The position numbers were made by a program, and so were the translations under genes. A DNA stretch of 64,000 nt from Blasia pusilla (lineage: Eukaryota), in the NCBI GenBank assembly GCA_050084515.1, contig CM114271.1:41974001-42038000 (forward strand), read 5' to 3'. Below, piece by piece: positions 4,540 to 61,770 of this stretch. Every line of letters starts with the position of its first letter. Position 1 is the stretch's first letter. Below the pieces are notes generated by a model. That model was given only the letters and a program-made list of their open reading frames with translations, searched no databases and had not been told where the DNA came from.

Positions 4540-7500
4540 TGAAGAGTAAAGTCCCTGAGTTTTGGATCAGACAAGGCGAGCACCATGATTGGTAGTAGAA
4601 ATGGGATAAGTTCCTGCTTGAAGAGGAATGTGAACCTTACATGACAAGTGTTCATTGTGTGGCACACCAGAAAAACTTAGCTACTCTTGATGCAACAACA
4701 AGTCCACGGTGCAAGAATCTTAGTGAAAAGGTAGATAACATTTTGATTATGTTTCTTTTTATTTCAAGAGAAGTTCAAAGCGTAAGTCTAGCCTTTCTTC
4801 TTTACAAGAAAAGATCAATGATTCTAGGAAGTCATGAAACGATATAGAAGGTGAGATGGCTTACGTCATGGCAAGTGATGAACTCTTTGTGTGACAATTT
4901 AAAATCTGTCATGGTTTACTTTTCTAATGTGAATCCCAAGGAAGATGATGGAGTAGCTTCTCTTCTTCTTAAGAGGCTGAAGTCCTTCAAAATGACTTAT
5001 GTCATTTTTTTTCTCGTCAACATACTTCATTCTATAGCAATGTTGAGCAAGTTACTTGAGACGAAGTTTGTGGATATATCTTCTATAGCTTCTATTGGTT
5101 AGACTGAGGTGGCGCATGTTAGAATGAACTCTATATATTAAAGTGTAGATATGAATGTCTGTCTCATATCTCAATCTATAGGTTTTCATCATCTTCCCCA
5201 TTATGGTCCTAGTGATGGATACATGTGGCGTTTGCAATAAGAGATTTGGAGCTCCTTCTTTCATTCAATCCAAACGGATAGGGATATCATAAGAGAAGAT
5301 TTAGAAGAAGCTCCTTTTTTCTTCAGAGGGATTTTGTTGAGGCTATATGTGTAACTTTGCCATAAAGGTTTGAAGATAATGACATCATTGGGGTTTTAAG
5401 ATCCTCAATCCAATCCATATGCCTTCTAGCATATCTGCTCTACGAGATTGGGATGTGAGGGAGTTGGAAATATTGAGTAGTTTCTATGGACAAGAAAAAA
5501 CCTTGCATGGGATAGTTAAAAGGCCTCTTTTATATTGAAGATTGAGTTACAGTCAAGCTTATGAGACACCTGAGCTGCTATATTTGGTATTCACACAAAG
5601 TAGGGTATCTTAATTTTGGTTAGTCAGTTAAGCGTGATTATCTTAACTAGGTTAGTTAATCACAGTTAGTCTAACTTGAGACTATGGTTAAGATTAGGGT
5701 TAGGGTTGCTTGTACATACCCTATATAATTGAGAAGGGGACTAGCCTCCACTCATTCTCTCATTGCAAAATTTCGTTTTCCATGGTGGTGTGTGAGTGTG
5801 AGAGCCGTTTTCCACCAATTATGCTTGTTTAGCAGTTTTCTACATGGTATCAAAGCTACACATCACTTGAAATTCTTGGTGTTTGAGGAGAGAAGAGAGG
5901 CAAGAGATGGCACAATTTCAGTTTGAGAGAAGGAAATTTTGTTTAGAGATCAGTGGGTGCATACTTCAGGTGGAGCTTTAATGCTAATAAAACTTTGGAG
6001 TCATTTTTTAGGGCTTTCCCAGTCGATTTAGCCATCTGGGTCTGCATCGGTTAGAACAACACTGAAATCTTGTTTTAATAGTCTTTTAGAACCCGTTGAG
6101 AGCTTTCCAACCCATCCAAAATTGCTTGATTCTGACATTCTCAGCTCTTGCAGTAGCAATTTCAGTGTAGGAAAGCACAATTAGTGAAGAAAAGTTGTGT
6201 AGTTTGATCTCTACCAGCCAATTTTGACTAGTTCTTTCATACAGTTGATCAATTTTGGAAAATTTTAGGTCGATATTTGTGTAAGAGTGGTCTATGCTTC
6301 AATTGGAGTAGTGAAAAAACCTGAAATTACGTTTTTATGAGTGAAATCGTTGGTCATGGAGTATTCCTTATCAACATTCACAAGTGAGAAGCTAGATAAG
6401 CAGAATAACAATGTCTGGAAATTTTGCATGAAAATTTCTCATGGATCAAGAACTATGGGAGCATATCACATATGATGAGGCCAAGCTAGAAGGTGACTCA
6501 ACACACTTGAATGTTCGCGCTTGGAACAAACGCGCAAGGCAAGTAATCCGCTATATTTCAATAACTATCAATTCGCCAATGATAGGTCATATTCAAGATG
6601 TTGATATTTCGAAGGAGGCCTAGGATGCATTGGAAAAGATGTTCAAGACATCTACAAAGGCCAAAAAGCTTCAATTGAAACAGCAATTGAATAAAATGAG
6701 GAAAGGATCGCAGAGCATCAATGATTATATTTTGAGTATCAGACATATTTTCGATCAATTAAATAGCATTGGAGTGACAGTAGAAGATGATGATCTGATT
6801 TTGTTCACTCTTCAAGTCCTTCCAAAGGATTACAAATCCTTTGAGATCTCTGTCTCTGTGAGAGAGAAGTATACAACCTTTCAAGAGTTAGTCCTACTGT
6901 TAATCAGTAAAGATATGCGCCTAGTAGGCAGCGCTAGCTCGTCTAGTCTACAAGAGAGTGCGTTATTTGCAAGTTATGGATCAAATAGAGGTAGAGGTCA
7001 TGGTAGAAGCTTTTGTGGTCATGTTGGACATCAAATATATGGAGGAAGAGACACTCAATATAATGTCACTCAATCAACTACGAATCAATATTAGACACAA
7101 TCACAAGATAAAAATGGTGGAAACCGTTGGGGTCGAGGTCATCAGCAGGAAGATCCATGGATCTTGCAATTATTGTGGGATAAAGGGTCACTATGCAAAG
7201 TTTTGCTTCAAGAAGAAGGAAAATATGAGAACAAGATCCTTACAACAACAAAACTATGTGAAATAACAACATGAAGGATAATACCAAGAACAACAAGATT
7301 CACAAACTGAGCATCTCTTGGTCATAACCCATCTTATGGTCAAGAAAGACTCGATAGCAGATTAGTACATTGACTCTGATGCATCAAATCACATGACCTC
7401 ACAAGCTAAATTGTTCAGTATTATGGAGCCGGTGAAAGATCTTGCAATTGTGCTCACAAGAGATGACACTCGGCATCATATCATGCAAAGTTCCAATAGC

Positions 7501-10500
7501 ATCAAATAGTCTTTGTGCTCTTGGAAATGTTATCTATGTTCCTACCAGTGCAAGAAACTTGATCTCTGTAGGACAGATAGTAGAACCAGATTATCAAGTG
7601 AAGTTGAAGACATACGGTTGTTCCATTGAAACAATGGATGACCAGACTATGACAGGCAAAGGAACTAGATCTGGCAGAATATTCAAATTAGATGTTTTTA
7701 TGCCAGAGATTCAAAATGTCACAAATCTAAATGTGTGGCATAAGAGAATTGGACATATGAATTTTCAAAGATTACAAAGTCTTTCATCATCTAATATAGT
7801 AATAAGACTTCCTAAATTAGCGAGTCCTACTATGTTAGAGGTATTTCCTGCTTGTCAATTTGGAAAAAAAGCTAGATTTCCTTTTCCAAAGTAAGGTAGA
7901 AGAGCATCCAAGATATTGGAGTTAATCCACAGTGATGTGTGGACAACATCACAACATAGCCTTAGTGATTGCCAGTGCTTTGTTTCATTTATTTATGACT
8001 TCTCTAGGTATATATGGATATATTTTCTAAAAGCCAAGTCAGAGGTATTCTCAATGTTCCAAACATTCTGAAATTGCGTCATGATGGAGGAGGAGAATAT
8101 CTTTCAACAGAGTTTGATGACAACTTACCTCAAAATGGCATCCAACGCAAATGAGTTATCACTACACTCCACAAAAAATGGAGTCGCTAAGAGGAAGAAT
8201 CATCATATTATTGAGGCGGCACGAGCTATGCTGAATGAGAAGAATATGCCTAAGGTATATTGGGCAGAGGCTGTAGCTTGTGCAGTCTTCTTCATCAACC
8301 GAACTCCAATAGCATGAATTCATGATAAGACTCCATTCAAAGTCTTCATAGGAAGTAAACCTGATTTTTCCTTCGTGAAAGTATTTGGTTGTATTTGTTA
8401 TGCTTAAGTTCCTTCTGAAAGACGTCAAAAATTAGACCCCACATATGAAAGATGTATATTCATTGGCTACACTGATGGAAATAAAGGATATAAGTGCTAC
8501 ATTCCATCCTCTAGGCACCTTATTATTAGTCGCGATGTTATCTTTGATAAGCTAAAGTCATGGTATGCTCCATCTGAGCCTATTCCACCTCTAAACTCTT
8601 CTGTTGAGGGGGAGAATACGACTGTAAATCAACAGACATTGCCTTCAAATTCCCCAAGTACTATTGTAGGATTAGGAGAGGTTCTAGATTCGTCAGTTAA
8701 ATCTGTGAGTCCATGGACGGGAAGAGTACGTATTCAATGTGTTGACACTAGTCAGAGCTTGAGTCAAGTGTTAGAAGCATCTACCTCTGAACAACAACTT
8801 CGTAAATCAAATAAAGTCACACATCCCGTTCATAGATTTATAAATGAAGGTTTCCTTGCCACACATCATGCATATATGATGACTACCCTTCAAAAATAAG
8901 AGCGAGTTATTTTGAAGAAGTTACAAGTAAAGTCGAATGGATTGAAGTTATGGAGGAAGAGCTTGTTGCATTAAGACATCAACAAATTTGGAAGTTGGTT
9001 GATATACCTTCTGGTAAGGAAGGTATTGGTTGCAAATGGATTTACAAAATCAAGCGCAATCAAGATAATACAGTAGTTAACAGATACAAAGCGATATTGG
9101 TGGCTAAGGGCTATGCACAACAATATGGCATCGATTATGAGGAAATATTTAGCCATGTTGCGAAGATGGCGACTACGAGAATAGTGGTTGTAGTTGCAAT
9201 AAGTAAGAAGTGGAGATTACATCACATGGACGTCAAGAATGCCTTCTTGAATGGAGATCTATATGAGGATATATATATATATGACTCAACCACTTGGATA
9301 TGAGTGTCTTGAGTTTCGCGTATGCAGGTTGAAGAAAGCTCTATACGGGCTCAAAAAAGCTCCAAGAGCTTGGTATGGCAAGATTACTTACGTCCTACAA
9401 GAATTGGGTTTTAGGAGATGTGATTCGGACTCCTCGTTATATATCTTGAGAGGACAAGATCATATGGTTATCATCGTGTTGTATGTTGATGACCTCTTGA
9501 TTACTGGGAGTACTGAGGATATGGTACAACAAGTCAAGCTAAAATTACAAGCAGAATTTGATATGAAGGACTTGGGAGAACTCAAGTACTTCCTTGGATA
9601 TTGAGTTTATCAAGGTTGGAGAGAGCATGTGGTTACTACAATGACAATATGCTCTTCACATGCGTTCAAAATATGGTATGACGGCTTGTAAGCCAATCTC
9701 TATACCGTTGGACCAGAGTGTGAAGCTAAGAGTGGATGAAGGAGAGTTTCTTGTAGATTCTAATATGTACATGCGCATGGTTGGAAGTTTGATCTATGTG
9801 ACTATTACCAGGATAGATTTGAGCTATGCTGTTGGCTTAGTGATCCAATTTATGCAAACACCTTGAAAACCTCACCTTGATGTTGTGAGGAGGATTATGC
9901 GGTATGTGAAATTCTCTGTTCAATTTGCGCTTCAATTTGAACCTTCTCCAAGTTTACAATTACAGGGATTCACAGACGTTGATTAAGCAAGAAGCGTGTT
10001 TGATCGACATTCCATATCTGGTATTTCATTTGCTTTAGGGAGCGCTGTTATAAGTTGGGCTTCAAAGGAGCAACGTACATTTGCTTTATCTTCAACAAAG
10101 GCTTCTTATAGAGGAGCAACTAATGCAGCATGTGAGACGGTGTGGCTTCATCAATTACTTGTTAAGATTCGTATTAGTAACTTAGGACGTAGTGTAATAT
10201 ATGCAGACAATATTAGTAGCATCGAACTTACTAATAACTCAGTGTTTCATGCTCGTACAAAGCATGTTGAGATGCACTATCATTTTATCAGAGAGAAAGT
10301 GCTTGCATGAGAAATTGATCTTATGTATATAGGTATAGATCAGCAAATTGCTGACATCTTTATAAAGGCATTGTCTAGAGATAAGTTTGAGATGTTTAGA
10401 AACGATTTAGGCACTAGCGATATCGATATGAGCTTGAGGGGGAGTATTGAAGATTGAGTTACAATCAAGCTCATGAGACACCTGAACTCCTATATTTGGT

Positions 10501-11202
10501 ACTCACACAAAGTAGGGAATCTTAATCTTGGTTAGTCAGTTAAGCGCGATTATCTTAACTAGGATTAGTTAATCAGAGTTAGTCTAACTTGAGACTATGG
10601 TTAAGATTAGGGTCAGGGTTGCTTGTACATATCCTATATAATTGAGAAGGGGACCAGCCTCCACTCATTCTCTCATTGCAAAATTTCATTTTTCATGGTG
10701 GTGTGTGAGTGTGAGAGCCGTTTACCACCAACTTATGCTTGTTTAGCAGTTTTCTACATTTTAGATAGTGCAACTCTCAGGAAAGAATTTGCAGCCTTCA
10801 AAATTCAAGCCATGAAAGAATGGAAGGAAAGTCCTTCAACTACTTGTGGTTTATGGTAAGTTGTAGTCCTTCTTTGAAGATGAAGTATGCTAATCTTTGT
10901 GCTTATGTGATGTAGCTAGAGTAAAATGTGTCTCAACATCAACATGTGAAAGAGTTTTTAGTATTCAAAATGTCATTAAGAATCGGTTGAGGAATAACTT
11001 CATTTCTCATCACTTAGAAGCTTTGATGAGGTTTAACATGGAGGAACCATGTGAGAATTTTGAGGTTGATGATGTTCTGATATCCATTGTGGATACATGG
11101 AAACGTTCAAAAGATTATATATTTTTGTATGCTAATCTAAATTTGTACATTGTTTCCCTTGTTCAACGTGCTAAGGAAGGTGAGACTAATTCTACCCCTT
11201 AA
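4540..11202 (+). mobile_element. hAT-superfamily (ZNF862/KIAA1586-like) transposase pseudogene split by a Copia insertion
   Basis: GSDKASTMIG...SVHCVAHQKNLA and VRWLTSWQ lie before the Copia. The C-terminal dimerisation motif STSTCERVFSIQNVIKNRLRN lies after it. TIRs were not identified. Confidence 0.8.
5533..10758 (+). mobile_element. Full-length decayed Ty1/Copia LTR retrotransposon
   Basis: LTRs at 5533-5844 and 10445-10758. TSD TTTTA at 5528-5532 and 10759-10763. PBS TGGTATCAAAGC (tRNA-iMet type) at 5845. PPT TTGAGGGGGAG. Domains: gag zinc knuckle CNYCGIKGHYAKFC, protease IDSDASNHM, integrase WHKRIGH and NGVAKRKN, RT LYVDD, RNase H RTKHVEMHYHFIRE. Many stops and frameshifts. Confidence 0.97.
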
Positions 11203-22802: not shown

Positions 22803-23908
22803 AATATATACATCTTATTGTAAAATAAACCTCAAAAGAGGACAAAGAAAGGTAATAACATCTCAAAATAGGAGTCAAAAAATGCATAATGGAATGCAAA
22901 AAGAAAATGGCGACTAGCCAACGCAAACACCGACTCAACGAGCTACATGATTGATAGTCTGAAACAAATCTGACAAGAATAAAAGTGGTTGGTCAGACAT
23001 AAATGGACGACGAGGCGAGCGACCCCCCACCACCTCCGCACGACGTATCAATGCCAAGGCTTATGCACCTTGTAAATCCATTGAGATGCATTGCCGAAAT
23101 AAGTAGTAACTACAGAGAGAGAAGGACTACAGGAAGGGGCAAGGTGATGGTTCTCGAGGGAGTGGTGAGTACATACTTTTAGGAAAGTATCAAAAAACAC
23201 ATGTAAATGACCGAATACTTCCACTGCAAAAGGAATAAATCCATCAGTCGCATGTCATACAACATAACTTCACTTCTTCATTCTTGCTTAAGCTTCGGCC
23301 ACCAAACCTTTGGTATGTACGGCTCGACACACCAAGTCAGAACGTATTGGATCAACAACCATCACAGCACCTAGTGTCCTGAATCCACCTTGAGACATAA
23401 CAAGATCCACTCTCCGACAAGAGGTTGCTTGTGTGGTTGAAGGTAGGTCATGGAGTTGCTCTTGCCCAACGGTGTATCTTGCAATACGAGCCACCAATGC
23501 TACCACCTCTCTAATGACATCATATGTGGTCGTTCGTTCTCCACCATGTGCACATCACAGAATATAGATACCCTTGGCATCAATGGGATCCCCGCATACA
23601 CAATTCGGCATACCTAAGAGAGAAGGATGGGGAAGTCCAAGGCGTAACCGCAAAGCTGTCGAGAACGTACTTCGAGGAAGATGAAATGGAAGAATAAGAG
23701 GATTTGTAGTAAGCCACGCCCCCGCTCCGCTACTCGCACTTCAACATAGACGAGCTCGATAAGCGTCAGAAGATGCCTCAGAGAGAATGCTAGAAAAGTT
23801 GATTTGATGCAGATTCTCAGAGATATGCTCTTGAAGTCGATAAAGCCCTTGGGTAATCAATTGACTGAAAGGGGGGGAGAATTGCTTGTGTAGCAAGAGG
23901 AAGAAGAT
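22803..23908 (-). mobile_element. 5'-truncated RLE non-LTR retrotransposon (endonuclease and 3'UTR), copy 1
   Basis: Strongly similar to 41915-43010 and to 55780-56870 (opposite strand). Contains CVCGDPIDAKG and RRVDLVMSQGGFRTLG. Confidence 0.88.
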
Positions 23909-24175: not shown

Positions 24176-26029
24176 ATTCCTTTGGTGAAAGGAGGATAAA
24201 AATGGACGAAGTACGTGGTGCAGGAGATGAGTTCTCTAATTGTTAGCAGAACAATTTATCAAGAACAAAGTGTCCCATGGAATGTACGATACCCTTATTT
24301 TTAGATGGGCGAGGAGAGATTCTTGGTTGAAAACCAGCAATTCAGGATCTAAAATGCGTGACAAAGTTTGAAAACCAACAGCTTATGAACTACTTCATCC
24401 AATCTTTGCCCTCAATCTCCTCCCATGAACTACAAAGTAAAGCATGAGTGATGAAGATTAATATAGACTAGCGATTACGATGGTACCTGGTCGATGGATT
24501 TTTTGATTGGAGCACTCTCTAGTCCGGGGAGAACAAAAGTTATAGATTCAAAGTAGCAATGAAGGTTAGCACACCATTCAAATATTGCCATGTACAGTAG
24601 GAACTCAAGCAAATCGTGCCGGCAACTATGCGGCCTTGAATTCCTTTTAGACCCTCTTGGTAATTCAAGCTTGGAGCATGGGGCCGAGGATATCCAAAAT
24701 GGCTTTCCTTGCACCCTCGTACTTTAGAACTTTGAATTCTCTTTTGGCGGGGTTGGCATCGATGTACAACTCCAATAAGGCAGGGGAATGGATGAGCGTA
24801 TGCTATGGCCGGCGGGGTTGATGATACCATCCACTTGCAGCTGATGCAACCTCTTGCGTTTCTATCCCTCAATCCAAGTCCAATTCTAAAGGGCATTTGG
24901 ATAGTCTTGAAGAACAGAAGTGTGTGTTTTGAGTGGTTGTACATATTGGAAGTTGTAATCTTGTGATTGATGCTAGTACGAGAGTGGGATGGTTGCATGC
25001 ATATGACAAAGGAAATATGAATGTCTTGTCTACTGCATGTAGCCTCATGAAAAAATCCCATATAATCATTAGATCCACCGATTGTCAAAACTTGCTTGAA
25101 CTACTTTAAATACTCGGAGGATCGCAATGCAAGGTTCCCGAACGGTTAATCACTATGGATAGTCTCGAAGAACAGAAGTGTAAGTTTAGAGTGGTTGTAC
25201 ATATTGGACGTCATAATCTTGTGATCGATGCTGGTGGGAGGGATTGTTGCATAACGAAGAGAATTTGAATGTCTCGTCCCCTGTTTCAATGTTCTCCACA
25301 TTGTAACTGCTAAGGTTATGTTCAAAGTAAGGGTGAGTAGCTTCAAGAATTGTGCCCGAGTATCGTACTTCTTGACTCTATTTCTTTTGTGGGAAAGGGT
25401 TTGTATTCGGAAATACCGACCACACCGATGAATCTCGAAATGCAAGAGCCTGTGGAGAGCGGCTAATTAAGTGGTCGGACGTCTAAAGCTGTAATATTTT
25501 GTACGGCCAAATGCCGTCCGCGGGTGCCGCCGGAGGTGGACGCTCACCTCCTGCGGCCGGATGTGCCGTATATTTCAATAACATGCCCTGAAAATTATGG
25601 AATCCGTAATTGAAATTTTTCGGACATAAATGAAAACCTTGAACGCTTGAAGGACGCTTGTTCGTTGACCGGTTGAGTAGCCCTTTCGCAAGAAAACCCT
25701 AAAACACCGCTCTCTTTGATTGATTTAGCTGCAGCAGACGGGAAGGATAAGTTACGGCCGGCAAATTTACGTAGAATCTGGAAGCAACGAACGAGGACAT
25801 CGCTACGTTAGGCGGATAGGTAGCCTCCTCATCACTGTCGTTCTATACCACAGGAAGCTCGAGTAGGGAGATAAATCGCGGCGAGGCCAACAAGCATTAC
25901 CATATCACACGCAAGAGCGTGGAGTGGGCATGCTCCCTAATGTAGAGCGTATATATACGAGCTCTTTCAGCACGTCTAATTTTCTCGGCAGTGAACTTTG
26001 GATTTCGGGAGTGAATTTTGGAGTGAGAT

Positions 26030-28109
26030 ATGCACGCCACGTTGGAGTTTGGGAGCGGCTGCTCTGTAAGAGTTGCAGCTTCTGCATTTGTTGCACATCC
26101 CTGGCCGCGTGCTGTGGGATTTGCACGAGCTGGAGGATTCTCGACAACAGGTTGTCAGGGTGGTGCCACACAAAGTTGGAGACACAAGGTTCAGTTATGC
26201 TCTAGAAGTAGACTTCTCTCTGCGCGACCAGAAGATGCGATGTCTTTCCAATTTATGTCTCAGTACTATGTATCGCCTCTGCGGACCACGAAGAAGTTCG
26301 TAAGTCCCATGGCCTTTTGGGGTTCTGGTAAATCAAAATTCACGGAGGTGGTTCAGGCTGGGGATCCTGTCTTGCACGAACCTTCATTGGAAGTGCGGGT
26401 CGAAGATATTGGAAATGCGCGAATTGAGAAAGTCATCAATGATCTGGTGGCTACTATGCGCAATGCTCCGGGTGTAGGCCTTTCAGCTCCTCAGATTGGC
26501 GAGCAGCTGCAGGTCTAATATTTTGAACTTTTTTCTACACGCAGGTGTAGTCATGACTTTACCTGGATCCATTGTCTATCTCGTTTCTTTATCGATGGTT
26601 GGCCGGCTCTTAGAGACGGTAGCCAAGGGGAGCAGTTTGCTTCTTTATATGCTCAGTCTCTTTGCTTCTATGGTTTTTTGCCGGATCCCTTCTGCAGAGC
26701 GATGCTGATTGTGAAAAAACGTCATGTATACAAGATCGTAGTTGTTGCCCTGTCAGATTATCGTACTGGAGGATACGGAAGAACTCATGAGCTATGCTTC
26801 AGCGGAGGAGTGCGAGGCGCAGGGACGCCACCCGTTTGACTTGCTGGTAATCTTCCTACCAGTAGCAGCATGAGTCGCGAACTTAGCGAGATGATGCGTT
26901 TCGGTTTGCTTGTCTGTTATCGATTCATTTGTGCTGCTCCGTGTTTCCAATGGCCGAATAAAAACTCAATTTACCGGAATGTGATGATTCTGGATAGCAT
27001 GTTTCCCTCCACAGGTGATCATCAATCCAAGGTTGAAGAGGAAGTGGGGTTCGGGAAAGGCGCTTTTCTTCGAGGGTTGCCTCAGGTTTTTTCTCTTAAA
27101 CCCCCGACCTTGGGCTGTGAAATTATTGGATGTCTCAGCTGAATGTATGGTTTAGTAGTCCATGTTTTTAGCCCGAGGATATTTTGATGGCCACAAGCAC
27201 TAATGAGTCTTGTCCATAGTACATCTTCTGCTAGCAAACACTACTTGGAAGGCCGGTCATAGAAATCTATGAAACCTTAGTCTCGATGATGCTAACTATT
27301 ATTAATATCATGATCCAGCATCTCGCGAGTGTTAAGAATACTCTTCTCGTACCCTTCCAATATCATATTTAATACATGGTGGATAGTTGTGATAAGTATC
27401 TATAGAATGGTAGCCATTGCGTCTTAGTAAAAGTATCTTATTAGCACCAAAAGTGAACCAAATTAATAATATTTAATGTATTACATGGGACTTCCGAAGT
27501 TTCTAAATCAGTTTAGACCCAGGAGAGGAGATACGCGGAGAGAAGTCCTTTCCAAGGTCCTACCTGATTTAAAAATTTCCGCGGCTTACCTTGTTACGTT
27601 TTCAGCAGGTTGCCAAGAGAGATTCTAGGTGACCTTTTGAAAAAATAAAATTACCCTGTTACTTTTGATTGTATTCCTTCACGTCCGAGCATGAATTACT
27701 ATCTTCTAAATGCTCTAGCTTCAAAAGATTATCGATTGGATCAAAAGTGAGGCACCAACAGAAATGCGAATGCATCCAGAGTATTATCCAAATGTTTTCT
27801 TATGTCTAAATAACTCGTTTCCGTGTGAACTTTAAACTCAGTGTGGATGGATATCGGGCTCTGGTGGAAAGAGACTTGGAAGTTGAAGTTTCAGGATTGG
27901 GTAGAGATGGACAACCTATTTACGTCGAAGCAAGCGGATGGAAGGCTCGAATTCTTCAGCACGAATGTGACCATCTATCTGGCATTCTGTATGTTGACAA
28001 GATGGTGGCGAAAAGTTTTCGGACCAAGGGAAATTTGAGAATGCCTTTGCCATGTGGTTGTCCGAAGCCTGGAAATTGTGTACAGGAAACCAAAGACAAC
28101 AGTCTGTAG
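26030..28109 (+). CDS. PDF1A: Peptide deformylase 1A, organelle-targeted, 4 exons
   Basis: Exons 26030-26512, 26757-26846, 27015-27085 and 27842-28109. Motifs [15 protein letters not shown] and QHECDHL. The IIVLEDT...[11 protein letters not shown] insert is typical of PDF1A. The N-terminus looks like a transit peptide. The start codon is uncertain, with alternative in-frame ATGs from 26240. Confidence 0.93.
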
Positions 28110-48989: not shown

Positions 48990-51900
48990 ACCACGTTTCA
49001 TACGTCTTTCCTTGTCTTCGATGACTTGCCTACCTTTACTTCTATGTCATTAGAGATGGATTTGGATTCTCCATCTACTCGCTTATCTGGTTTTACACGC
49101 CCTCCTACAATTGTAATCTCTCCCCCTGGTTCACCTCCTCCTCGTAGATCTCACCATTTTCCTCCATATGCTAATACACCCATTACACTCGCTACATTTC
49201 TTCCGGATTCTCCTCTTCTTCCTTCTTCGCCTTGTCTTATTGAGCCTAATTTTGATCCATTATTACCGAATTTTTCTACTTTGCCATCCCCACCTATCTC
49301 ATCTATGCCCTTTCTTCCAACTCCCATCTATTCTATCCGAATCTCCCCTTTACCCCCTCATCGTCGGCCATCACCACCTCTTGCACCTCCCACCTCCTCT
49401 CCTTGTAACCCTTCTACTTCTCCATTTGTACCAAAGGTTTGTTGCATACCTTGTGGTAAGGAGTTTGCTCCTAATGGGATCAAAAGACATCAGCGGTACT
49501 GTCGATCCATGCATGGGCCTTCAATGCCTAACCCGATACCACCTCCTACTACACTCCCCACAACAACTACTTGGACCTGGTTAAACCAAATTGATCTCCT
49601 TCGCTCTTTCCATCCAAGTCTTCCTCGTCCTAGACTCTACACTTGCATTCCAATTGCTCTTTGCCCCATCATCCAACAAGCTTTGTTGTTCCCATTAGAA
49701 AGGTTAGCACGTGACCCCACATATATCAATGCTTGGTATCTCCTATTACTCTTCCCACAATGGTTTTTAGTCCTCCCTCCAAGGGGTGGTGCAATGGATC
49801 ATCGTGAAACCTCCACACGTATTCAACGCTTTATGTCTGGGGATGAGGAGAATCTTCAGAATGAGCATATACTTCGAGCATAGGCCTTAGCTGCGGCTCA
49901 TCCCACTCAACATGCCAGTCATGGGATGCCTTCAACACAACAACGTCTTTGACGAAGTCTTCTTTTGGGGCACGTTGGTGAGTTTTCACGTGCAGCTCGA
50001 GCATTGGGCCCTCTTTCTCCGGCGGTTCCAAGTGCGGAAACAGTGGCTCTCTTAGAGTCTCTTCATCCTCCTTCAAGTGGCGATGTTCCATCTTTTGTGG
50101 AAGACTATACAACGGACCTTGACTTGGAGGTTTTCACAAGGGCTTTTCTGCATACTCTTCGTTTATCATCAAGCGGGCTATCAGGGATGGTTTTTTAGCA
50201 TCTCCGCGATTTGCTTTATCCCAGCAGATTCAACAAGTGGCTTTGTCTCTCTATATAAGGTGTGTGCACATATGGTAGCACGTCGTCTCCCATTCTCTAT
50301 CTCTATGCTCTTAGGGGCTTGTCGTTTGTTGGCTATGGATAAGTCTCCTTCAGGTGTGCGCCCTTTGGCTATTGGAGAGGTTTTATACGGCTTGGTTAGT
50401 CGATCCCTATGCTTGCAATTTTTTCCTCACTTAAGTGCCCACTTATTTCTGCATAAATTTGGAGTGGCAACTCGTGGAGATTGTGAGGCTGTGATGCATA
50501 GGATTCGCTCCACTCTTGATATTCATCCAGATTGGGTAGCAATTCAAGTCGATGTGGCTAACGCATTCAATTCAGTTTCTCCTGCGGCCATCTTTGAGGA
50601 GTTACGTTGTGTAGGAGGACAACTCGCGAGCCTCATTCCATTTGTTTGCTCCTTCTATGCCTTGGATGTGGAAAATTGCTAAACAAGCATAATTGGTGGA
50701 AAACGGCTCTCACACACACATACCACCATGGAGAACGAAATTTGCAATGAGAGAAATTGAATGGAGGCTGGTCCTCTTCTCAATTATATAGGGTATGTAC
50801 AAGCAACCCTAACCCTACCCTTAACCATAGTCTCGAGTTAGACTAATTGTGATTAACTAACCCTAGTTAGCATAATCGTGCTTAACTGACTAACCAAGAT
50901 TAAGCTTCCCCACTTCGCGTGAGTACCAAACGTAGCAATTCAAGTGTCTCATGAGCTTGACTGTAACTCAATCTTCAATATTCCCCCTCAAGCTCATGTC
51001 GATATCTTTAACGCCTAAATCCTTTCTAAACATCTCAAACTTATCTCTAGACAATGTCTCTGTAAAGATGTCAGCAATTTGCTGATTTGTATTTATATAC
51101 ACAAGATCAATTTCTCCTGAAAGCACTTTCTCTCTAATAAAATGATAGTGCATCTCAACATGCTTTGTACGAGCATGAAACACAGGGTTATTAACAAGCT
51201 TGTTGCTATAATATTGTCTGCGTATATTACACTAGATCCTAAGTTACTAACAAATAATCGATGAAGCCACACCGTCTCACATGCTGCATTGGTTGCTCTT
51301 GTGTACTCAACCTCTATTGAAGATAAAGCAATTGTAGGTTGCTTCTTTGAAGCCCAACTTATAGCTGCGCTTCCCAAAGTAAATGAATAACCAGATGTGG
51401 AGTGTTGATCAAACACGTTTCCTGCCCGATCAGCATTTGTGAATCCTTGTAATTGAAAACTCGGAGAAGGTTCAAATTAAAGCCCGAATTGAATAGAGAA
51501 TTTCATATATCGCATAATCCTCCTCACAGCATCAAGGTGAGGTTTTTGAGGTGCTTGCATAAACTGGCTCACTAGGCCAACAACATAGCTCAAATCTAGT
51601 CTGGTTAAAGTTAGATAGATCAAAATTCCAACCATGCGCCTGTACATATTAGAATCTGCAAGCAGCTCTCCTTCATCCACTCTTAGCTTCACGCTCTGGT
51701 CCAACGGTGTAGAGATTGGCTTACAAGCCGTCATATCATATTTTGAAAGCATATGAAGAGCACATTGTTGTTATAGTAATCACATGCTCTCTCCAACCTT
51801 CATAAACTCAATACCAAGGAAGTACTTGAGTTCTCCCAAGTCCTTCATATCAAATTATTGCGTGTTACTTAAGCTTGACTTGTTGTACCATTTCTTCAAT

Positions 51901-54900
51901 ACTCCCTAGTAATCAAGAGATCGTCAACATACAACACAGTCATATTCTCCCCCTCAACATACAAGTTTAGAGGTGGAATAGGCTCAGATGGAGCATACAA
52001 TGACTTTAGTTCATCAAAGATAACATCTCCACTAATAATAAGTTGCCTAGAGGATGGAATGCAACACTTATATCCCTTAGTTCCATCAACATAACCAATG
52101 AAGATGCATCTTTCAGACTTGGGGTCTAATTTCTTACGTCTCTCAGAAGGAACATGAGCATAACAAATACAGCCAAATACTTTCAAGAAGGAAAAATCAT
52201 GTTTATTTCCTTTGAAGACTTCGAATGGAGTTTTATCATGAACTCCTAATGTTGGAGTTTGGTTGATTAAGAAGATTGCACATGCTACAGCCTCTGCCCA
52301 ATACACCTTAGGCATGTTCTTCTCATTCAACATAGCTCGTGTCGCTTCAGCAATGTGTCGATTCTTCCTCTCAACCACTCCATTTTGTTATGGAGTATAA
52401 CGGTAAGTCAATTGACGTTGGATGCAATTCTGACGTAAATAATCATCAATCTCTGTTGAAAGATACTCTCCTCCTCCATCACAACGCAATTTCATAATGT
52501 GTTCTCCAGTCTTCTTCTCTACTAGAACTCTGAATGTTTGGAATACTGAGAATACCTCTGACTTGGCGTTCAGAAAGTATATCTATATATACCTAGAGAA
52601 ATCATCAATAAATAAAACAAAGTACTGGCAACCACTAAGGCTATGTTGTGATGTTGTCCACACATCACTCTGGATCAACTCCAATATCTCGGATGATCTT
52701 ATACCTTGCTTTGGAAAATGAAATCTAGCTTGTTTTCCAAATTGGCAAATAGGACATACCTCTAACGTAGTAGGACTCGCTAATTTAGGGAATCCTATTA
52801 CTATATTAGATGATGAAAGACTCTTTAATCTTTGAACATTCCTATATCCAATTCTTTTATGCCACACATTTAGATCTATGACTTGTTGGCCGATTTGACC
52901 ATACATTGTTGTTTGAATCTCTGGCACAGAAATATCTAATTTGAACATTCTGCCAGATCTAGTTCCTTTGGATATCATAGTCTGGTCATCTATTGTTTCA
53001 ATGAAATAACTATCTGCGTTAAACTTCACTTGATAACCCTGTTCTACTATCTGTTATACAGAGATCAAATTTCTTGCAATGATAGGAAGATAGAGAATAT
53101 TTCCAAGAGCACAAAGACCATCTAATGCTATTGGAACTTTACCGGTATGTGTGATATGATGTTGAGTGTCATCTCATGTGAGTACAATTGTAGGATCTTT
53201 GACCGACTCAAAACTACTAAACCATTTAGCTTGTGAGATCATGTGATTTGATGCACCAAAGTTAATGCACCAATCTGTTGTCGAGTCTTTCTTGACCATT
53301 GCTCCCATATGATGAGTCATGACCAAGAGATGCTTCGTTTGTGAATGTTGTTGTTCTTGGTACTGCTCTTGATGTTGTTGCTCCACATAGTTTTGTTTCT
53401 GTAAGGCTCATGTTCTCATATCTACCTTCTTCTTGAAGCAAAACATTGAAGCCTTCTTCATGACCCTTGCCTCTGTTTGATCCATAAACTGCAAATAGCG
53501 CACTCTCTTGCAGACTAGACGAGCTACCGTTGCCTACTAGACGCATCTCTATATTGATCAACAGAGGAACTAACTCTTGAAAGGTTGGATACTTCTCTCT
53601 CACAGAGATAGAGGTCTCAAAGGACTTGTAATCCTTTGGAAGGCCTTGAAGAGTGAATAAAATCAGATCATCATCTTCTACTATCACTCCAATGCTATTC
53701 AACTGATCAACAATATGTCTGATACTCAAAATATAATCATTGATGTTCTGCGATCCTTTCCTCACTTCGTTCAATTGTTGTTTCAATTGAATCTTTCTGG
53801 CCTTTGTAGATGTCTAGAAGAGCTTTTCCAATGCATCCTAGGGCTTCTTTGGAGTATCAACATCTTGGATGTGACCTATCATTGGCGACCTGATCGTTAT
53901 TGAAATGTAGTGGATTACTTGCGTTGCGGGTTTGTTCCAAGCGCGAACATTCAAGTCTGTTGAGTCACCTTCTCGCTTTGCCTCATTATCTGTGACACAC
54001 TCCCATAGTTCTTGACCCATGAGAAATTTTTTCACGCGAAACTTCAAGACATTGTATTTCTGCTTATCTAGCTTCTCGCTTGTGATTGATGCTGAGGAAT
54101 ACTCCATGATAAACGATTTCATTCATAAAAATATAATTTCAGGCTTTCTATTGCTCCAATTGAAGCATAGACCACTCCTACACAGAAATTGACCTGAAAT
54201 TTGCCAAAATTGATCAATTGTATGAAAGAACTAGTCAAAATTGGTCTGTAGAGAGCAAACTGCACAACTTTTCTTCACTAATTGTACTTTCCTACATTGA
54301 AATTGCTACTGCAGGAGCTTAGAGTGTCAGAATCGAGCAATTTTGGGTGCGTTGGAAAGCTCTTGACGAGCTCTATAAAATGGGTAAAACCAGACTTTGA
54401 TATTATTTTAGCGGACCCAAACGGCTGAATCGACCGGGAAAGCTCTAAAAAATACCTCCAAAGTTTTATCACTGTCAAAGCTCCACCTGAAATCTACACC
54501 CACTGAGCTCTGAATAAAATTTCCTTCTCCCAAAATAAAATTGTGCCTTCTCTTGCCTCTCTTCTCTCTTCAAACTCTAAGAATTTCAAGTGATGTTCTC
54601 CTCCCGCTCTGATACCATGTGGAAAACTGCTAAACAAGCATAATTGGTGGAAAACGGCTCACACACACCACCATGGAGAACGAAATTTAAAATGAGAGAA
54701 ATTGAGTGGAGGCTGGTCCTCTTCTCAATTATATAGGATATGTACAAGCAACTCTTACCCTACCCTTAACCATACTCTCGAGTTAGAATAATTATGATTA
54801 ACTAATCCTAGTTAGGATAATTGTGCTTAACTGACTAACCAAGATTAAGCTTCTCTATTTCGTGTGAGTACCAAATGTAGCCGTTCAGGTGTCTCATGAG

Positions 54901-56872
54901 CTTGACTCTAACTCAATCTTCAATATTTGATACGCCCATTATCTATTCCCATCATGCTACTTCTGGGGAATATAGTATTCTACAATCGACTTGAGGCACA
55001 CGTCAAAGTGATCCCATGGGTGGGCCACTCTTTGCCATTGCCCATTTTCGTGCCCTTCGAGCATCAGCACAACCATTTCCATCTTGTCTTTTCCGTTCTA
55101 TTGCTGATGACACTCACATTATACATCCTCCTTCTGAAGTGGTTCCTGCTTATACCCATTTTGTGGAGCAACTCTCTTTCTTAAACCTTAAAGTCCAACC
55201 TAGTAAATGTGGATTATGGTCTCCTTCTTGCCTTCCCTCAACATTCACCCCCATCTACTCCTGATTTTCCCATCTATATTGAAGGGGTTAGAGTTCTTGG
55301 GGTCCCGATTGGCTTCATCGACTATGTCTCAAAGTTCTTGGATGAGGCCCTTTAATTTGAAAGACGTGGAATGGCTTCATTTGTTACCTCATCTAGGAGA
55401 TCCCCAAGTGGCTTATGGGATTCTCTCCCAATGTTTTCTACGACATCCTTCCTACCTTCTTCGCACTTGTCCTCCCACTTCAAGGTTCTTACATCGGTTG
55501 GCATCTTTTGACGCTTCTATCTTGGCAACTTTTGGTCAACTTCTTGGCCCGAATACCTTTGAGGAGAGGATGGTGTCTTGCCTATTTCTTTTGGAGGGGT
55601 GGGACTGTCCTCCACAATCGCAGTTGCTCCGGCAGCCTTTTTGGGGAGTTGGGCGTTGGTAGCACCGATTATGGCTTCTAGGTTTCTCCAAGGAGATACA
55701 CCTATCTTGATGGATCATATCGCCCATGTAGAGGAGGGGGACTTATTATTTCAACAAAAACTAAGATCTGCACGAACTCTTCTTCCTCTTGCTACACAAG
55801 CAATTCTATCCCCTTTCTGTCAACTGATTACGGAAGGGCTTGATCGACTTCAAGAGCATATCTCATAGAATCTGCATCAAATCAACTTTTCCATCATTCT
55901 CTCCGAGGCATCCTCTGACGCTAATCGAGCTCATCTACGTTCATGTGTGGGTACTGGAGCAAGGGCGTGGCTTACTGCAAATCCTCTTATTCTTCCATTT
56001 CATCTTCGTTGAAGTATATTCTTGAAAGCTTTGCGGTTATGTCTTGGACTTCCCCACCCTTCTCTCTTAGGTGTGTTGAATTGTGTATGCGGGGATCCCA
56101 TTGATGCCAAGGGTATCCATATTCTCCGATGTGCACATGGTGGAGAATGAACGGCCACACATGATGTCATTAGAGAGGCGGTAGCATCAGGTGCTTGTAC
56201 TGCAAGATACACCGTTGGGCAAGAGCAAATCCATGTCCTACCTTCAACCACACAAGCAAACTCTCGTCGAAGAGTGGATCTTGTTATGTCTCGAGGTGGA
56301 ATCCGGACACTAGGTGATGTGGTGGTTGCTAATCCAACACGTTCTGACTTGGTATTTTGAGCCGCACATACCAAAGGTTTGCCGACCGAAGCTGCAGCAA
56401 GAATCAAGGAGTTAAGTTATGTTGTGAGACATGTGACTGATGGATTTATTCCTTTTGCAGTGGAAGTATTCGGTCATTTACATTTGTCTTTTGATACTTT
56501 CCTGAAAACATGTGCTCACCATTCCCTCGAGAATCATCACCTTGTTCCTTCCCATAATCCTTCTCTCTCGATAGTTACTACTTATTTTCGGCAATGCATC
56601 TCAGTGGCCTTACAATGTGCACAAGCCTTGGCATTGATACGTCGTGCGGAGGGTCGCTCGCCTCGTCGTCCATTCACATCTGACCAACCACTCGTATTCT
56701 TGTCATATTTGTTTCAGGCTATCAATCATGTAGCTCGTTGAGTCGATGTTTGCGTTGGCTTGTTGCCATTTTCCTTTTACATTCTTTTATGCATTTTTTA
56801 CTCCTCTTTTGAATTGTTATTACTTTTTTCTATCTTCTTTTGAAGTTTATTTTATAATAAAGTAGATATATT
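48990..56872 (+). mobile_element. Near full-length RLE non-LTR retrotransposon (CRE-like), copy 3, interrupted by Copia
   Basis: Single-ORF layout. Pro-rich N-terminus, zinc finger CIPCGKEFAPNGIKRHQRYC, RT (GVRPLAIGE, QVDVANAFNS, DPMGGPLF, IADD), CCHC knuckle and RLE. The 3'UTR has AATAAA followed by GTAGATATAT. The 5' end is approximate. Confidence 0.9.
50667..54925 (-). mobile_element. Internally deleted Ty1/Copia element of the same family as 5533-10758
   Basis: LTRs at 54618-54925 (5') and 50667-50980 (3'). PBS TGGTATCAGAGC at 54606-54617 on the minus strand. PPT present. TSD TTGGA/TTTGA, where the uninterrupted RLE copy 2 has a single TTTGA. Most of the RT N-terminal part is missing. 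Confidence 0.96.
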
Positions 56873-58042
56873 TTAAATTTAACTTCTTAAAATGATATAT
56901 GTAAGTCGGAAAGGAGTCCTTAAGAGACAAATATCAAAGGTAAAAAAAATTCTTAAAATATTTCGTCTCTCATAAATATATATTTTTTAAATGAAAACAT
57001 TTAAAACACATATTACATAACATAAAATGTTTAAATATCTTATCCATCTTCTTTAACGGAAAATATATAGATGTCACTAAGATGTGACCCGAAGAGAATG
57101 CGAAAGAACCGAACAGTCTGGAAAGTACGTCGTGTAACTTTGTTCTTGTAGTAAGTTTCGTTTGTACCACGACATCCATTTTGGCACGGCAACTTGGCGG
57201 CTGGCATCCTGCCTTGATTTCAGTTCGTACGTGTTTCGGGGGACTGACGCTTGGCCCGGTCGATCAGATCGGAACCACTCTACTATAAACACGTGTCGAT
57301 ATCAACCGATCGCTGGATGTGACTCATGTGAAGTGCGAAATCAGATACTAGTTATTCTCAATAAAGTCACGGACGGACTTCCACTGCGTTCTACTTTTGC
57401 ATCTACTTTCATTAAGCATAAATAATTACTGCTTACTGAACAGTTAATTAAGGACCTGTGCGGGAAATTAAAAAGGATTTGAATAGCTAGTTTGTAAGAA
57501 TATTAAAAAAAGGTTTTTTTAATAATATATCCAATTTCAGTAAGACAATTTTTCATATATTTTTTTTGTTAATAGTCGAAGAATAACTTATTCCTTTCCC
57601 AATCCCCGTCTTTCAATAAGTAAATAAAATAAAATCATTTATTTTCTTGAATTTTTTTCCAAAAAAAGAATTTATATTTTATTTCAATTTAAAATATATA
57701 TATAATATTTCTTCCATTATTTTGAAGAATAATTCTTGTCCCATTTGTGTCCAATTCTCTTTTTCATTTTTCCCCAAATCGTAAATTATTTTTTCCCTCA
57801 AACCTAAAATTTAAATATTTTTGTCATAATTTTTTTATATGAACATTGAAAAAATAATTTTAAATTTTAAAATGAGAAAAGATAATAAAAATGAATGATA
57901 GAAGATTTCATACGAAAGATGTTTGAATCTGAGTTAATTATTATTATTTATAAATTTATGAATTAAAATTTTTATTTGATCATTAAAATCTTACCCATTC
58001 TTTTTTTTGCTTAGTATAGGGTAGATTTTTTCAAAAAAAATC

Positions 58043-58108
58043 ATGCGTATCATCCTTGCACAAGGCCATGCAAATCTTCTCGGTATATATCGTTCCAATT
58101 TTATCGGA
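58043..58108 (-). pseudogene. U6 snRNA pseudogene fragment
   Basis: The minus strand reads TCCGATAAAATTGGAACGATATATACCGAGAAGATTTGCATGGCCTTGTGCAAGGATGATACGCAT, matching the U6 core. The ACAGAGA box and AGC triad are mutated, and the 5' stem-loop and 3' end are missing. Confidence 0.9.
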
Positions 58109-58951
58109 ACAATAAAATTCATGAATCAATCATGGAAAAATCTGATAGGTGTCATTCATTCATTCATTCATGGTCTTCAAAGTGAACTAACGCCCTTGAG
58201 TGTATGATTAAGAGAGGATGAATTTGGCTTCCTTCCATTATCACCTATCTTTTGAGGTTTATTTAGACACATGTCAATTAGAGGGAAGAAGTTAAATTAA
58301 AAAGTAAGAAGAAATGATTAAATTAAGAAGAGATTTAAGTTAAATGAAGAGGGGAAACGAGCACCAACTCCGCGAATAATCAAATGTCACTTTTTCCAAC
58401 ATATGACTTCTTACTTACATTTTTTAAAGTGATATTAAGGATTCCTACTTCACCAAAATTTAGAATTTTGGGCCCATATCCACAATATTATCATCAACCA
58501 CCATCTTTTTGGCCGAATTGAGGAGAGGAAGGAGCTGTTCTACCATGACAAGCACCATTAGGCCAATACCAACATGATGGATTGTTAATAGGTCTTAGAG
58601 GCCTACTATCTTCTTTGGATGGAGACAAAACACATCCGTTGACCAAAGAGAAGATGCATGACACAAATGAAAATAAAGGTCGAGTTCTATTGGGGGATAA
58701 GACTAATAAAGATGCAAGAGGTGTTTTGAATGACCTAAATAAAGGTTGTAATATTAGTTTTGATAGGATTGGGGAGAGTTCCAATTGCCTTGTACATAGG
58801 AGCGTTATTACCATAACCTTTTGTGGGGAGAGTGCTTTGGATAATAGCAAAGTTATTCTTGTCCATTATAGTTGGGGAGTTTAATTATGAATTCCTAAAA
58901 AACTTTTGATTTGGAATCCGAATACAACATTTTGAAGGGAAACATCAACAC

Positions 58952-59330: not shown

Positions 59331-60744
59331 TCCGCCTGATAGTAATGCACTAACTTTGTATCGTAAGCGATCGTAAGAGCAAGAGAATTTCACTTTCAGT
59401 TTGGAACATTGTAACTTGAGATCAAATTATAACCTTGAAGTGAACAAAGATGGGGTGCTTCAAGGAGAAAATCTCATGGCAACAAAGAATTGATCGAGAG
59501 ATACGATCATGGCTCATTGAGATGTACAATCAAGGAGAGCTTATTCACGAAATTTCCATGGATCTCCAAAATTAAGAGGCGCAGAACTTCTTCTTTAGGC
59601 AGGGGTCAAATCCACAAGAAGTCTCGAATGCCCTCAACACATCTCTTCAGCAAGTTCTAAACGATCATCAAAATCCATTGATGGATGATCCTGTCTTGAG
59701 GATACTCGAATTGATCTTGCCACTTTTCTTATTGCAACATATTCCTCAAAGGATGAAAGGGGGATATCCACCATATATCATTATCCCCATGAATGCATGA
59801 GGAATTTATCAGATTCTTTGAAAGAGATTGTGTTGCAACCCTCATGACCAAACGAGCGCCAAGCGGAACATCAAAAATCTAGTGGGCTCACACGCGCTTG
59901 GATGATTTGCGCGTTGGAGAGGTTTCTTGAAGGAGATACAAGATATGGTACGCAAACAAGGTTGAACTTTTCATGCGTTTATGGTCGTGACTAGGAAGCC
60001 TAAACCAAATGTGGACCAAAACTTAAGAGGAGTGGAGTCTAGGAAGAGAGGTTGCCAAAGAGGTGAAAATTGGATTTGAACGTGGCTAGTGTTTGGGATT
60101 TCTACTATATTTTGGACCATAAATTTTAGTCCTAAGATGTTTTTGGGACAAGAAGTTGGCGTTGGAAAGCTTATGCAAAATTTATTCCAATGCACTCAAG
60201 ATGTGAGCAATTGCATAAGCAGAGACTAGGAAACTTCGCAAAAATGACTAAAGAGGGAGTTGGGTTGAGGGCCAAGAAGAGGGGCCGGAGAGTCTTTTCT
60301 CAAAAGATAGGGGTAGGGCAGAGAACCCCATGAGTACTAGTAATGGGGAAGGTCTCCATGAATGCTTGGGACTCAAATCTCACTTTGGGATGCCGCGTGG
60401 CGAACCAAGGGCATGGAATGGATTGGGAATTTGGTGTTGGGAGTTGAAACTTGAACCAAGTCCAATAGAGTGGATTTCGGAGGCCACTATTGGATTCCAA
60501 CCCACAACTCATTTAATTGCCTCTTGGTTAAGCACTCATGCGAGGTCCATTGGATAATTGGGACCATCAAGCGTACGAAGGCTATTTTAGGTGCCTTGAC
60601 TATCCAAAAAGTCTATCCCAAGTCTCGGAAGACTTGCCCGTGTTGGGAAGTGAGGAACTATTGAAGATTCACTTACAATCAAGCTCATTCGACAATCGAA
60701 TTTCTATATTTTGTACTCAAACGAAGTAGAAAAGCTTATTCTTG

Positions 60745-61770
60745 GTCACTTAGTTAAACACAATTAGTCTATGGTTAGTTAATCATAATTAGACTATGGT
60801 TAGTTAATCACAATTAGTCTAACTATGGTTAGCTAATCATAATTAGTCTAACTATGGTTAGTTAATCATATTTTGTCTAAATCAGGACTATAGTTAGGAT
60901 TAGTGTTAGGGTTGCTTTTACATGCCCTATATAATTAAGAAGGGGACTAACCTCCACTCATTCTCTTACTGCAAAATTTCATTCTCCATGGTGGTATGTG
61001 AGAGTTGTTTCCCACCATATATGCTTCTTTAGTAGTTTTCTACATTATATCAGAACGATAGGAGAACATCACTTGAAATTCTTGGTGTTCAAAAAGAGAA
61101 GAGAGGCAAGAGAAGGAAAATTTCAATTTGGGAGAAGGAAATTTCTTTTAGAGCTAGTGGCAAAAGATTTCATGTGGAGCTGTGACGATGATAAAATTTT
61201 GAAGGTGTTTTTTTGGGCTTTCTCGATCGATTAAGAAATCTGGGTCCGTAATGATTAGAATGACACGAATGGTGGATCAAATTTTCTTGTGGAACTCACC
61301 GAGAGCTTTCCAACGCATCCAAATTCGCTTGATTCTGACATTTTGAGCTCCTGCAATAGCAATTTTAGTATAGGAAAGTGCAATTGGTGAAGGAAAGTTG
61401 TGAAGTTTGCTCTGAATAGGCCAATTTTGACTAGTTCTTCCATACAATTGGTCAATTTTGGAAAATATCATATCAATTTCTATTTAGGAGTGGTCTTTCT
61501 ATGCTTCAATTGGAGTAGTGGAGAGCCTGAAATTATGTCTTCATGAGTAAAATCATTTTTCATGAAGTATTTCTCAATAGCAATCACAAGTGAGAAGCTA
61601 TATAAGCAGAACTACAATGTCTTGAAGTTTCAAATGAAAAAAATTCTCATGGGTCGAGAAGTATGGGTGATTTTTATAGGTGATGAATCCCAGCCATGAG
61701 GTGACTCCATAGACTTGAATATCCACGCTTGGAACAAGCGCGTAAGGCAAAAAATCCACTATATTATAGA
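60745..61770 (+). mobile_element. Truncated third Copia family member (partial LTR, leader, gag start)
   Basis: LTR ends TTTTCTACA at about 61044. PBS is decayed (TTATATCAGAAC). The leader and gag start align with 5845-6560. Confidence 0.88.

Follow-up and report, generated by a model that had tools for sequence, protein, structure and literature searches.

The 64,000-nucleotide stretch of Blasia pusilla DNA analysed here (contig CM114271.1, positions 41,974,001 to 42,038,000; termed the window) very probably carries three dead insertions of one family of retrotransposons that lack long terminal repeats (non-LTR retrotransposons), also known as long interspersed nuclear elements (LINEs). The family has one open reading frame (ORF) that encodes, in order, a zinc finger, a reverse transcriptase (RT), a CCHC linker and a C-terminal nuclease of the PD-(D/E)xK type, and it is thus of the restriction-like endonuclease (RLE) type. 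A preliminary description of the same DNA had placed a CRE-like RLE element at 48990–56872 and had reported three copies in 64 kb, one of them near full length and two 5′-truncated. BLASTN of 48900–57000 against the window, repeated with more sensitive settings, finds three copies. Tblastn with three full-length relatives recovers the same three places and no fourth copy in the window. Copies 2 and 3 are 5′-truncated, as had been described.

The three copies are ~87.5–92% identical to one another and fall within 34 kb (22803–56871). By BLASTN, positions 54926–56871 of copy 1 align with 43850–41920 of copy 2 (88.4% over 1979 nt), and a further segment upstream, 50254–50667, aligns with 44258–43845 (90.1% over 415 nt). 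Copy 3 is shorter; its positions 23907–22803 align with 55778–56872 of copy 1 (87.5% over 1106 nt). The 5′ junctions are near 44260 in copy 2 and near 23907 in copy 3. Copy 1 reaches from the 5′ untranslated region (UTR) to the 3′ end, and in this sense it is near full length, but it is not intact: read along the tblastn frames, its translation is broken at least seven times by an in-frame stop and four times by a frameshift. Stops are also present in truncated copies 2 and 3, and all three copies are decayed by frameshifts and stops.

Two parts of the preliminary description do not hold. The start of the element had been put at 48990, whereas the repeat goes further upstream. Public sequencing runs of the same species were mapped on 48500–57300 at ≥80% identity, and the depth of whole-genome shotgun (WGS) reads is still 142 in 48500–48793, compared with 0.3 in the unique flank at 57026–57300. 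The 5′ end of copy 1 is therefore at or upstream of 48500. In addition, 48990–56872 is not one element, since 4,260 of its 7,883 bases belong to an unrelated Copia-type LTR retrotransposon, nested in copy 1, that had been overlooked. The coordinates of the LINE segments and of the nested element are in Table 1.

At the protein level, the full element ORF has ~1,100 codons, and the ORF of copy 1 has a probable start at 49044. The zinc-finger-like motif near the N-terminus has the same position and the same F...GI..H pattern as the C2H2 motifs of two relatives, P0008 and P0009. Pfam zf-C2HC_2 matches it weakly (E 0.074, under the cut-off). The surrounding N-terminal region is conserved, and residues 172–274 of copy 1 match relative P0008 at E 3e-9. 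Downstream of the nested element, RT motif B (GTRQSDP) is found at ~54995 and motif C (ADD) at ~55106. The CCHC motif reads CVCGDP...H...C, and in copy 2 a 309-aa ORF at 41878–42804 spans both this motif and the RLE. Pfam gives weak RVT_1 matches and nothing else on the pieces in the window, with an E value of 0.011 for the RT N-terminal piece of copy 1 taken alone. The motifs readable in the translations follow the order that had been proposed, i.e. zinc finger, RT, CCHC and a PD-(D/E)xK nuclease with RVD.

The type of nuclease is the property that separates RLE LINEs from those with an apurinic/apyrimidinic endonuclease (APE). A profile of 10 full-length relatives of the family was compared with the PDB, and it matches R2 retrotransposon proteins (9nl3, E 4.4e-26; 9dou, E 7.7e-26) over profile positions 233–946, a span that begins ahead of the RT and includes the nuclease, whose catalytic D, D and K align in register. 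The same profile matches human L1 ORF2p at E 7.8e-5 and in the RT only. A single relative compared with the PDB without a profile gave no useful match. The window's own sequence can also be compared at the level of predicted fold. An AlphaFold model of the 309-aa ORF of copy 2 has a mean predicted local distance difference test (pLDDT) score of 82.3, and a Foldseek search with this model gave seven matches at E ≤ 0.001, all seven to R2 retrotransposon proteins. Behind these come weaker matches, to the nuclease-like domain of Prp8 and to other nucleases of the PD-(D/E)xK type. Identity to the R2 proteins in the fold alignments is ~14–18%.

Domain content points in the same direction. By Pfam, RVT_1 is present in 26 of 26 relatives scanned, and APE, RNase H and Myb domains are found in none of the 26 at E ≤ 0.01, a set that includes the three longest (1,617–1,833 aa). 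Two of the 26 have a PHD finger and one has a C2H2 finger. In the window, Pfam found no APE domain in the ORFs scanned and no Myb domain in the N-terminal ORF. The copies display the features of LINE-type insertion: there are no LTRs, the 3′ end is common, and 5′ truncation is variable (two of three copies).

An alternative is an APE-type plant LINE, L1 or RTE, that has a chance 'nuclease' motif at its C-terminus. In its favour, L1 and RTE are the only LINE superfamilies that the available text of a 2022 review gives for land plants (PMC9033089); the preliminary description had likewise taken plant LINEs to be mostly APE-type L1 and RTE. However, the 26 relatives have no APE domain, the profile match is ~21 orders of magnitude better to R2 than to L1 and extends through the nuclease, and the 309-aa window ORF resembles the nuclease region of R2 in its predicted fold. 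A chance motif in an APE-type element is thus extremely improbable, and the assignment to RLE LINEs, which had been made before from the letters of the sequence, is upheld. A grouping of the RT with APE-type LINEs, which had been named as a refutation of that assignment, is not observed.

The nested Copia element provides a measure of age. Its LTRs, at 50666–50982 and 54617–54927, are 90.9% alike by BLASTN, its minus-strand ORFs have Pfam gag, pre-integrase and integrase SH3 domains, and it is flanked by a 5-bp target duplication with one mismatch. Relative to another copy of the same Copia family at 5507–10759, it is internally deleted by ~850 nt at ~51937 and by ~190 nt at ~53448; loose read ends at these deletion points agree at 0.91–0.93. 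BLASTN shows a further copy of the family at 60656–61765, and with a WGS depth of ~500–830 the Copia family is commoner than the LINE. There are 231 WGS reads that run from 50662 straight to 54928 without Copia sequence, and accordingly other LINE copies lack the insertion.

The Kimura two-parameter distance (K2P) between the LTRs of the nested Copia is 0.079, and K2P between the LINE copies is 0.086–0.127. As copy 1 hosts the Copia element, copy 1 is older than an insertion that is itself old. The three LINE copies in the window are old, dead insertions. The family had been described as proliferating, and this is only partly correct: the window copies do not fit the term, but the family has many copies and some of them are transcribed.

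The abundance of the family can be estimated from WGS run X12, in which 33,116 of 12,434,590 reads mapped to the region. Depth over the LINE climbs five-fold in the 5′-to-3′ direction, up to 708 in 56144–56437. Calculated from depth and bin length, the LINE bins account for ~1.6 million of the 1,966 million letters (0.08% of the sampled DNA), and the 3′ end is present in ~360 copies per gigabase of genome. That three copies are found in 64 kb although the family makes up so small a part of the sampled DNA suggests local clustering or a repeat-rich neighbourhood. Identity of the X12 reads to copy 1 is ≥99% for 149 reads, 95–99% for 1,812, 90–95% for 15,310 and <90% for 15,845. At the four frameshift sites of copy 1, reads without the shift number 230 of 333, 276 of 388, 206 of 320 and 165 of 347.

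At the RNA level, the first-mate depth in most LINE bins of runs X15 and X16 is 3–23 on the minus strand, compared with 0–4 on the plus strand. Of the RNA reads mapped in these runs, 516 in one and 885 in the other with the nested Copia counted in, not one is ≥99% alike to the window sequence, and the RNA therefore stems from other copies. This raises the question of whether the family is still retrotransposing, with some copies intact and the RNA being functional element mRNA. The strand-biased RNA extends over the 5′ UTR and the ORF, most reads are without the shift at three of the four frameshift sites, and relatives have intact ORFs of 900–1,130 aa, all of which would agree with present activity. 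On the other hand, the unshifted reads fall short of half at the fourth site. The scarcity of DNA reads at ≥99%, with most below 95%, marks the family as old and diverged relative to copy 1, with its youngest members undated by this comparison. Neither an intact family copy nor an insertion polymorphism has been seen, and dead copies of such elements are commonly transcribed. Continuing retrotransposition is thus possible but somewhat doubtful.

The 3′ ends of the three insertions are well defined. All three copies align through ...ATAATAAAGTRGATATAT and are unrelated beyond this point. A 26-nt pattern of the 3′ terminus, with ≤3 mismatches allowed, matches at 56846–56871 and at 41920–41945, and it has no match in any of 100 shuffles. 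In all three copies the first 11–16 flanking bases after the 3′ end are A or T only, in a window with an A+T content of ~60%. RNA reads of a fourth copy depart from the window sequence right after 56871 and go on CATATATAAT. A/T runs are therefore present at four of four 3′ junctions seen, three in the window and one from RNA reads. The 3′ ends of the LINE copies have no poly(A) tail. A shared 3′ end of AATAA followed by a TA-rich tail had been noted before, as had a dispersed distribution with A/T-rich 3′ junctions; the alignment and the shuffle test confirm the former, and the unrelated flanks and the A/T-only runs the latter.

The sequences that flank each copy bear no relation to those around the other two, and thus there is no single gene target for the family. 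At Rfam gathering scores the window has no rRNA match; only a tRNA and a U6 gene are found, neither of them at a LINE junction. Perhaps the family does not insert at random but is specific for microsatellites of the (TA)n or A/T type. GATATAT forms the end of the element, with A/T-only bases after it in each window copy, the fourth junction begins with the bases given above, such A/T runs are unlikely by chance at the A+T content of the window, and microsatellite-specific RLE families are reported in the available part of PMC4640811. Yet the A/T run may stem from the element itself, as a tail, and not from the target, the upstream flanks of the two truncated copies have no clear (TA)n, and the junctions number only four. 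Targeting of microsatellites is therefore considered unlikely, and dispersal with A/T-rich 3′ junctions is the reading retained here; the A/T runs may be either a tail of the element or a sign of preference for A/T or (TA)n targets.

Candidate target duplications were considered for each copy. For copy 2 there is an 8-mer match in the flanks, which is displaced, and for copy 3 a split A/T motif, also displaced; both were rejected as unproven. The 9-nt A/T matches for copy 1, at 47695 and 47880, are at chance level in A/T-rich DNA.

By analogy with R2 biochemistry and the R2 structures matched above, the element protein would bind its own RNA, and the C-terminal nuclease would nick chromosomal DNA. 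The 3′-OH released by the nick would then serve as primer, with reverse transcription beginning at the 3′ end of the RNA, a process termed target-primed reverse transcription. Incomplete copying would leave 5′-truncated insertions, and both the observed 5′ truncations and the depth gradient fit such a process. The insertions are not aimed at a single repeated gene but are dispersed, with A/T-rich 3′ junctions, and in its bryophyte-like host the family has attained a copy number in the hundreds to thousands.

Relatives of the family are found in large protein collections. Intact relatives of 900–1,130 aa are 37–50% identical to the window RT, and the nuclease part alone has 802 matches at E ≤ 0.001 in a library of 50% representatives. 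Named members of the matching clusters come from three species, and all are annotated 'hypothetical' or 'unnamed'. The liverwort Riccia fluitans contributes 11 sequences, all in a single cluster. From the liverwort Calypogeia fissa there are 12 in a single cluster and four further representatives, and from the charophyte alga Klebsormidium nitens two entries. Matches in a protein atlas are to 'hypothetical protein' clusters only, some of which are labelled Streptophyta. A more distant branch (P0193, P0195) has an N-terminal PHD finger in place of the zinc-finger motif, and one atlas cluster with a PHD domain is labelled Cnidaria.

In a maximum-likelihood tree of 34 RT rows, from which the fragments P0186 and P0192 were left out, the RT of the window falls in a group with the rows of Riccia and Calypogeia (Shimodaira–Hasegawa-like approximate likelihood ratio test, SH-aLRT, 83). 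This group lies inside a 17-row clade (SH-aLRT 99) that includes the Klebsormidium cluster. The host sequence of the window is in agreement. A peptide deformylase exon at 26027–26518 (+) has its best named matches in Marchantia (61%), Calypogeia (62%) and Riccia (53%), and it also matches Sphagnum (71%, over less of the query). As this exon is closest to bryophyte proteins, the source of the window is a land plant of bryophyte-like character, and the land-plant origin given in the preliminary description is supported. The LINE looks resident in the genome and not foreign. The presence of relatives in liverworts and in a charophyte alga suggests a resident streptophyte lineage that would have been passed on by vertical descent.

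The RLE-type non-LTR group contains R2, CRE, NeSL/Utopia, R4 and HERO. Elements of the CRE clade (CRE1, CRE2, SLACS and CZAR of trypanosomatids) have one or more N-terminal zinc fingers and a C-terminal RLE. Their insertion sites are spliced-leader genes, and their copies end in A tails; MoTeR is found in telomere repeats. Compared with this architecture of CRE elements, the general domain order of the family is alike, but the window copies have neither a spliced-leader site nor an A tail.

Of the RLE elements, R2 (R2Bm of Bombyx mori and R2Tg of Taeniopygia guttata; 8gh6, 9dou, 9nl3) also has one ORF with RT, linker, CCHC and C-terminal PD-(D/E)xK nuclease. The fold of the nuclease region is shared, and so is the lack of a poly(A) tail. 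The R2 clade differs in its N-terminal Myb domain, which Pfam detects neither in the 26 relatives nor in the N-terminal ORF of the window. It also sits in 28S rDNA, whereas the window copies have no rRNA match and have differing flanks, and the family described here has hundreds or more dispersed copies.

The preliminary description had called the family CRE-like. In favour of membership specifically in the CRE clade, the CRE architecture is matched by one ORF in which an N-terminal zinc finger is followed by an RT and, at the C-terminus, by CCHC and RLE, and the family is without the Myb domain of R2 and without the protease of NeSL. The same architecture, however, fits NeSL/Utopia and HERO too, as the available part of PMC4640811 gives these one to three N-terminal zinc fingers, an RT, and a C-terminal zinc finger and RLE. 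Placement in CRE is for this reason doubtful. NeSL/Utopia and HERO are alike in domain plan, and many HERO families are described in that same text as non-specific and some as microsatellite-specific. In contrast, no U2 snRNA gene lies at the LINE junctions, the sole snRNA gene in the window being U6 at a distance of 1.1 kb, and Pfam finds no protease or RNase H domain in the relatives.

Two comparisons concern LINEs of the green lineage. Dualen/RandI of green algae is given in the available part of PMC4640811 as a green-lineage LINE with an RLE. It carries an APE domain as well, and the 26 relatives of the present family have neither APE nor RNase H. L1 and RTE elements of plants share with this family the host group, 5′ truncation and dispersed copies. 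They differ in having an N-terminal APE nuclease and an (A)n or (GTT)n end, according to the available text of PMC9033089, whereas in the present family the nuclease is a C-terminal RLE and the element ends in GATATAT, followed by an A/T run. A search of the literature, with Repbase and Dfam entries outside its scope, yielded no paper that describes RLE LINEs from streptophytes.

A more far-reaching proposal is that the family and its liverwort and Klebsormidium relatives constitute a distinct, vertically inherited streptophyte RLE clade outside CRE, NeSL, R2, R4 and HERO. This clade would have lost gene-specific targeting, would have about a thousand dispersed copies in the bryophyte and would still be transcribed from its own 5′ UTR. 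The proposal is put forward only tentatively and, taken in full, is on the improbable side.

Several points weigh against the account given here of the family, its spread and its expression. None of the three window copies is intact, so that they give no evidence of activity. BLASTN of 45000–49100 against the window gave no second copy from which the true 5′ end could be fixed, and comparison of flanks did not establish target duplications for any of the three copies. The identity threshold used for mapping lets related families add to read depth. Copy number hinges on genome size, and the depth of the unique flank rests on about one read. The strand-biased RNA is sense LINE RNA by the usual library convention, which was uncalibrated on a host gene, and both strands are seen in one 3′ bin (56438–56731). 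The RT tree is a quick one (LG+G4) with only three named reference rows, all of them from streptophytes; the liverwort grouping is moderately supported, and long-branch joins are flagged elsewhere in it.

Table 1. Positions of the LINE copies, their motifs and the nested Copia element in the window
Feature	Positions	Strand	Content and basis
LINE copy 1, 5′ segment	48500..50662	+	At least 540 nt of 5′ UTR, N-terminal region, RT up to motif A; WGS depth 142–421 across bins, translation, tblastn
LINE copy 1, 3′ segment	54928..56871	+	RT motifs B and C, thumb, linker, CCHC, RLE, C-terminal helices, short 3′ UTR; BLASTN, translation, tblastn
LINE copy 2	41920..44258	-	5′-truncated within the region before the RT; longest open frames, including RT read-through P0001; BLASTN
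LINE copy 3	22803..23907	-	5′-truncated; linker, CCHC, RLE and 3′ end left; BLASTN, tblastn
N-terminal zinc-finger-like motif, C-x2-C-x11-H-x3-C	49440..49502	+	Read in translation
RT N-terminal half	50330..50662	+	Motifs 1, 2 and A (QVDVANAFNS at ~50545); interrupted by Copia; translation, tblastn
CCHC motif and RLE core of copy 1 (RVD...GDVVV...K)	56082..56420	+	Stops inside; translation, alignment to R2 nuclease via the family profile
Conserved LINE 3′ terminus	56846..56871	+	AATAAA, terminal GATATAT, then 11-nt A/T-only flank
Copia-type LTR retrotransposon nested in LINE copy 1	50667..54926	-	4.26 kb; not LINE sequence; LTR pair, Pfam domains

Other features of the window lie outside the LINE copies. 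A tRNA-Asp(GTC) gene at 47596–47669 (-) is ~0.8 kb upstream of the last documented repeat position of the LINE, and a 9-nt A/T match to the 3′ flank of the LINE, probably due to chance, is 26 nt from the 5′ end of this gene. A U6 snRNA gene at 58015–58123 (-), which scores exactly at the Rfam gathering score (44 bits), is 1.1 kb past the 3′ end of copy 1. A link between LINE insertion and genes transcribed by RNA polymerase III (Pol III) was considered and rejected: neither the tRNA-Asp gene nor the U6 gene lies at a junction, and no such gene is found beside copy 2 or copy 3. A permissive Rfam scan of 47500–49300 for a ribozyme in the 5′ UTR found none, with only the tRNA and chance-level matches returned. 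An exon of a host gene for a PHD-finger protein is located at 1311–1835 (+).

A many-copy RLE LINE in a bryophyte, together with relatives that lack annotation in two liverworts and one charophyte, broadens the picture of land-plant LINEs as L1 and RTE only. It also suggests that annotations of such genomes hold many unrecognized LINE fragments under the name 'hypothetical protein'. Should the distinct streptophyte clade prove correct, it would be a third type of land-plant LINE beside L1 and RTE, with a different nuclease, and it would provide a natural RLE enzyme with relaxed, A/T-directed targeting. RLE LINEs are under development for gene insertion (PMC13580325), and how the choice of target is encoded could become clearer from a lineage whose insertions lie outside rDNA. 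The interest thus lies in the family and its host range, for which the dead copies in the window serve as markers.

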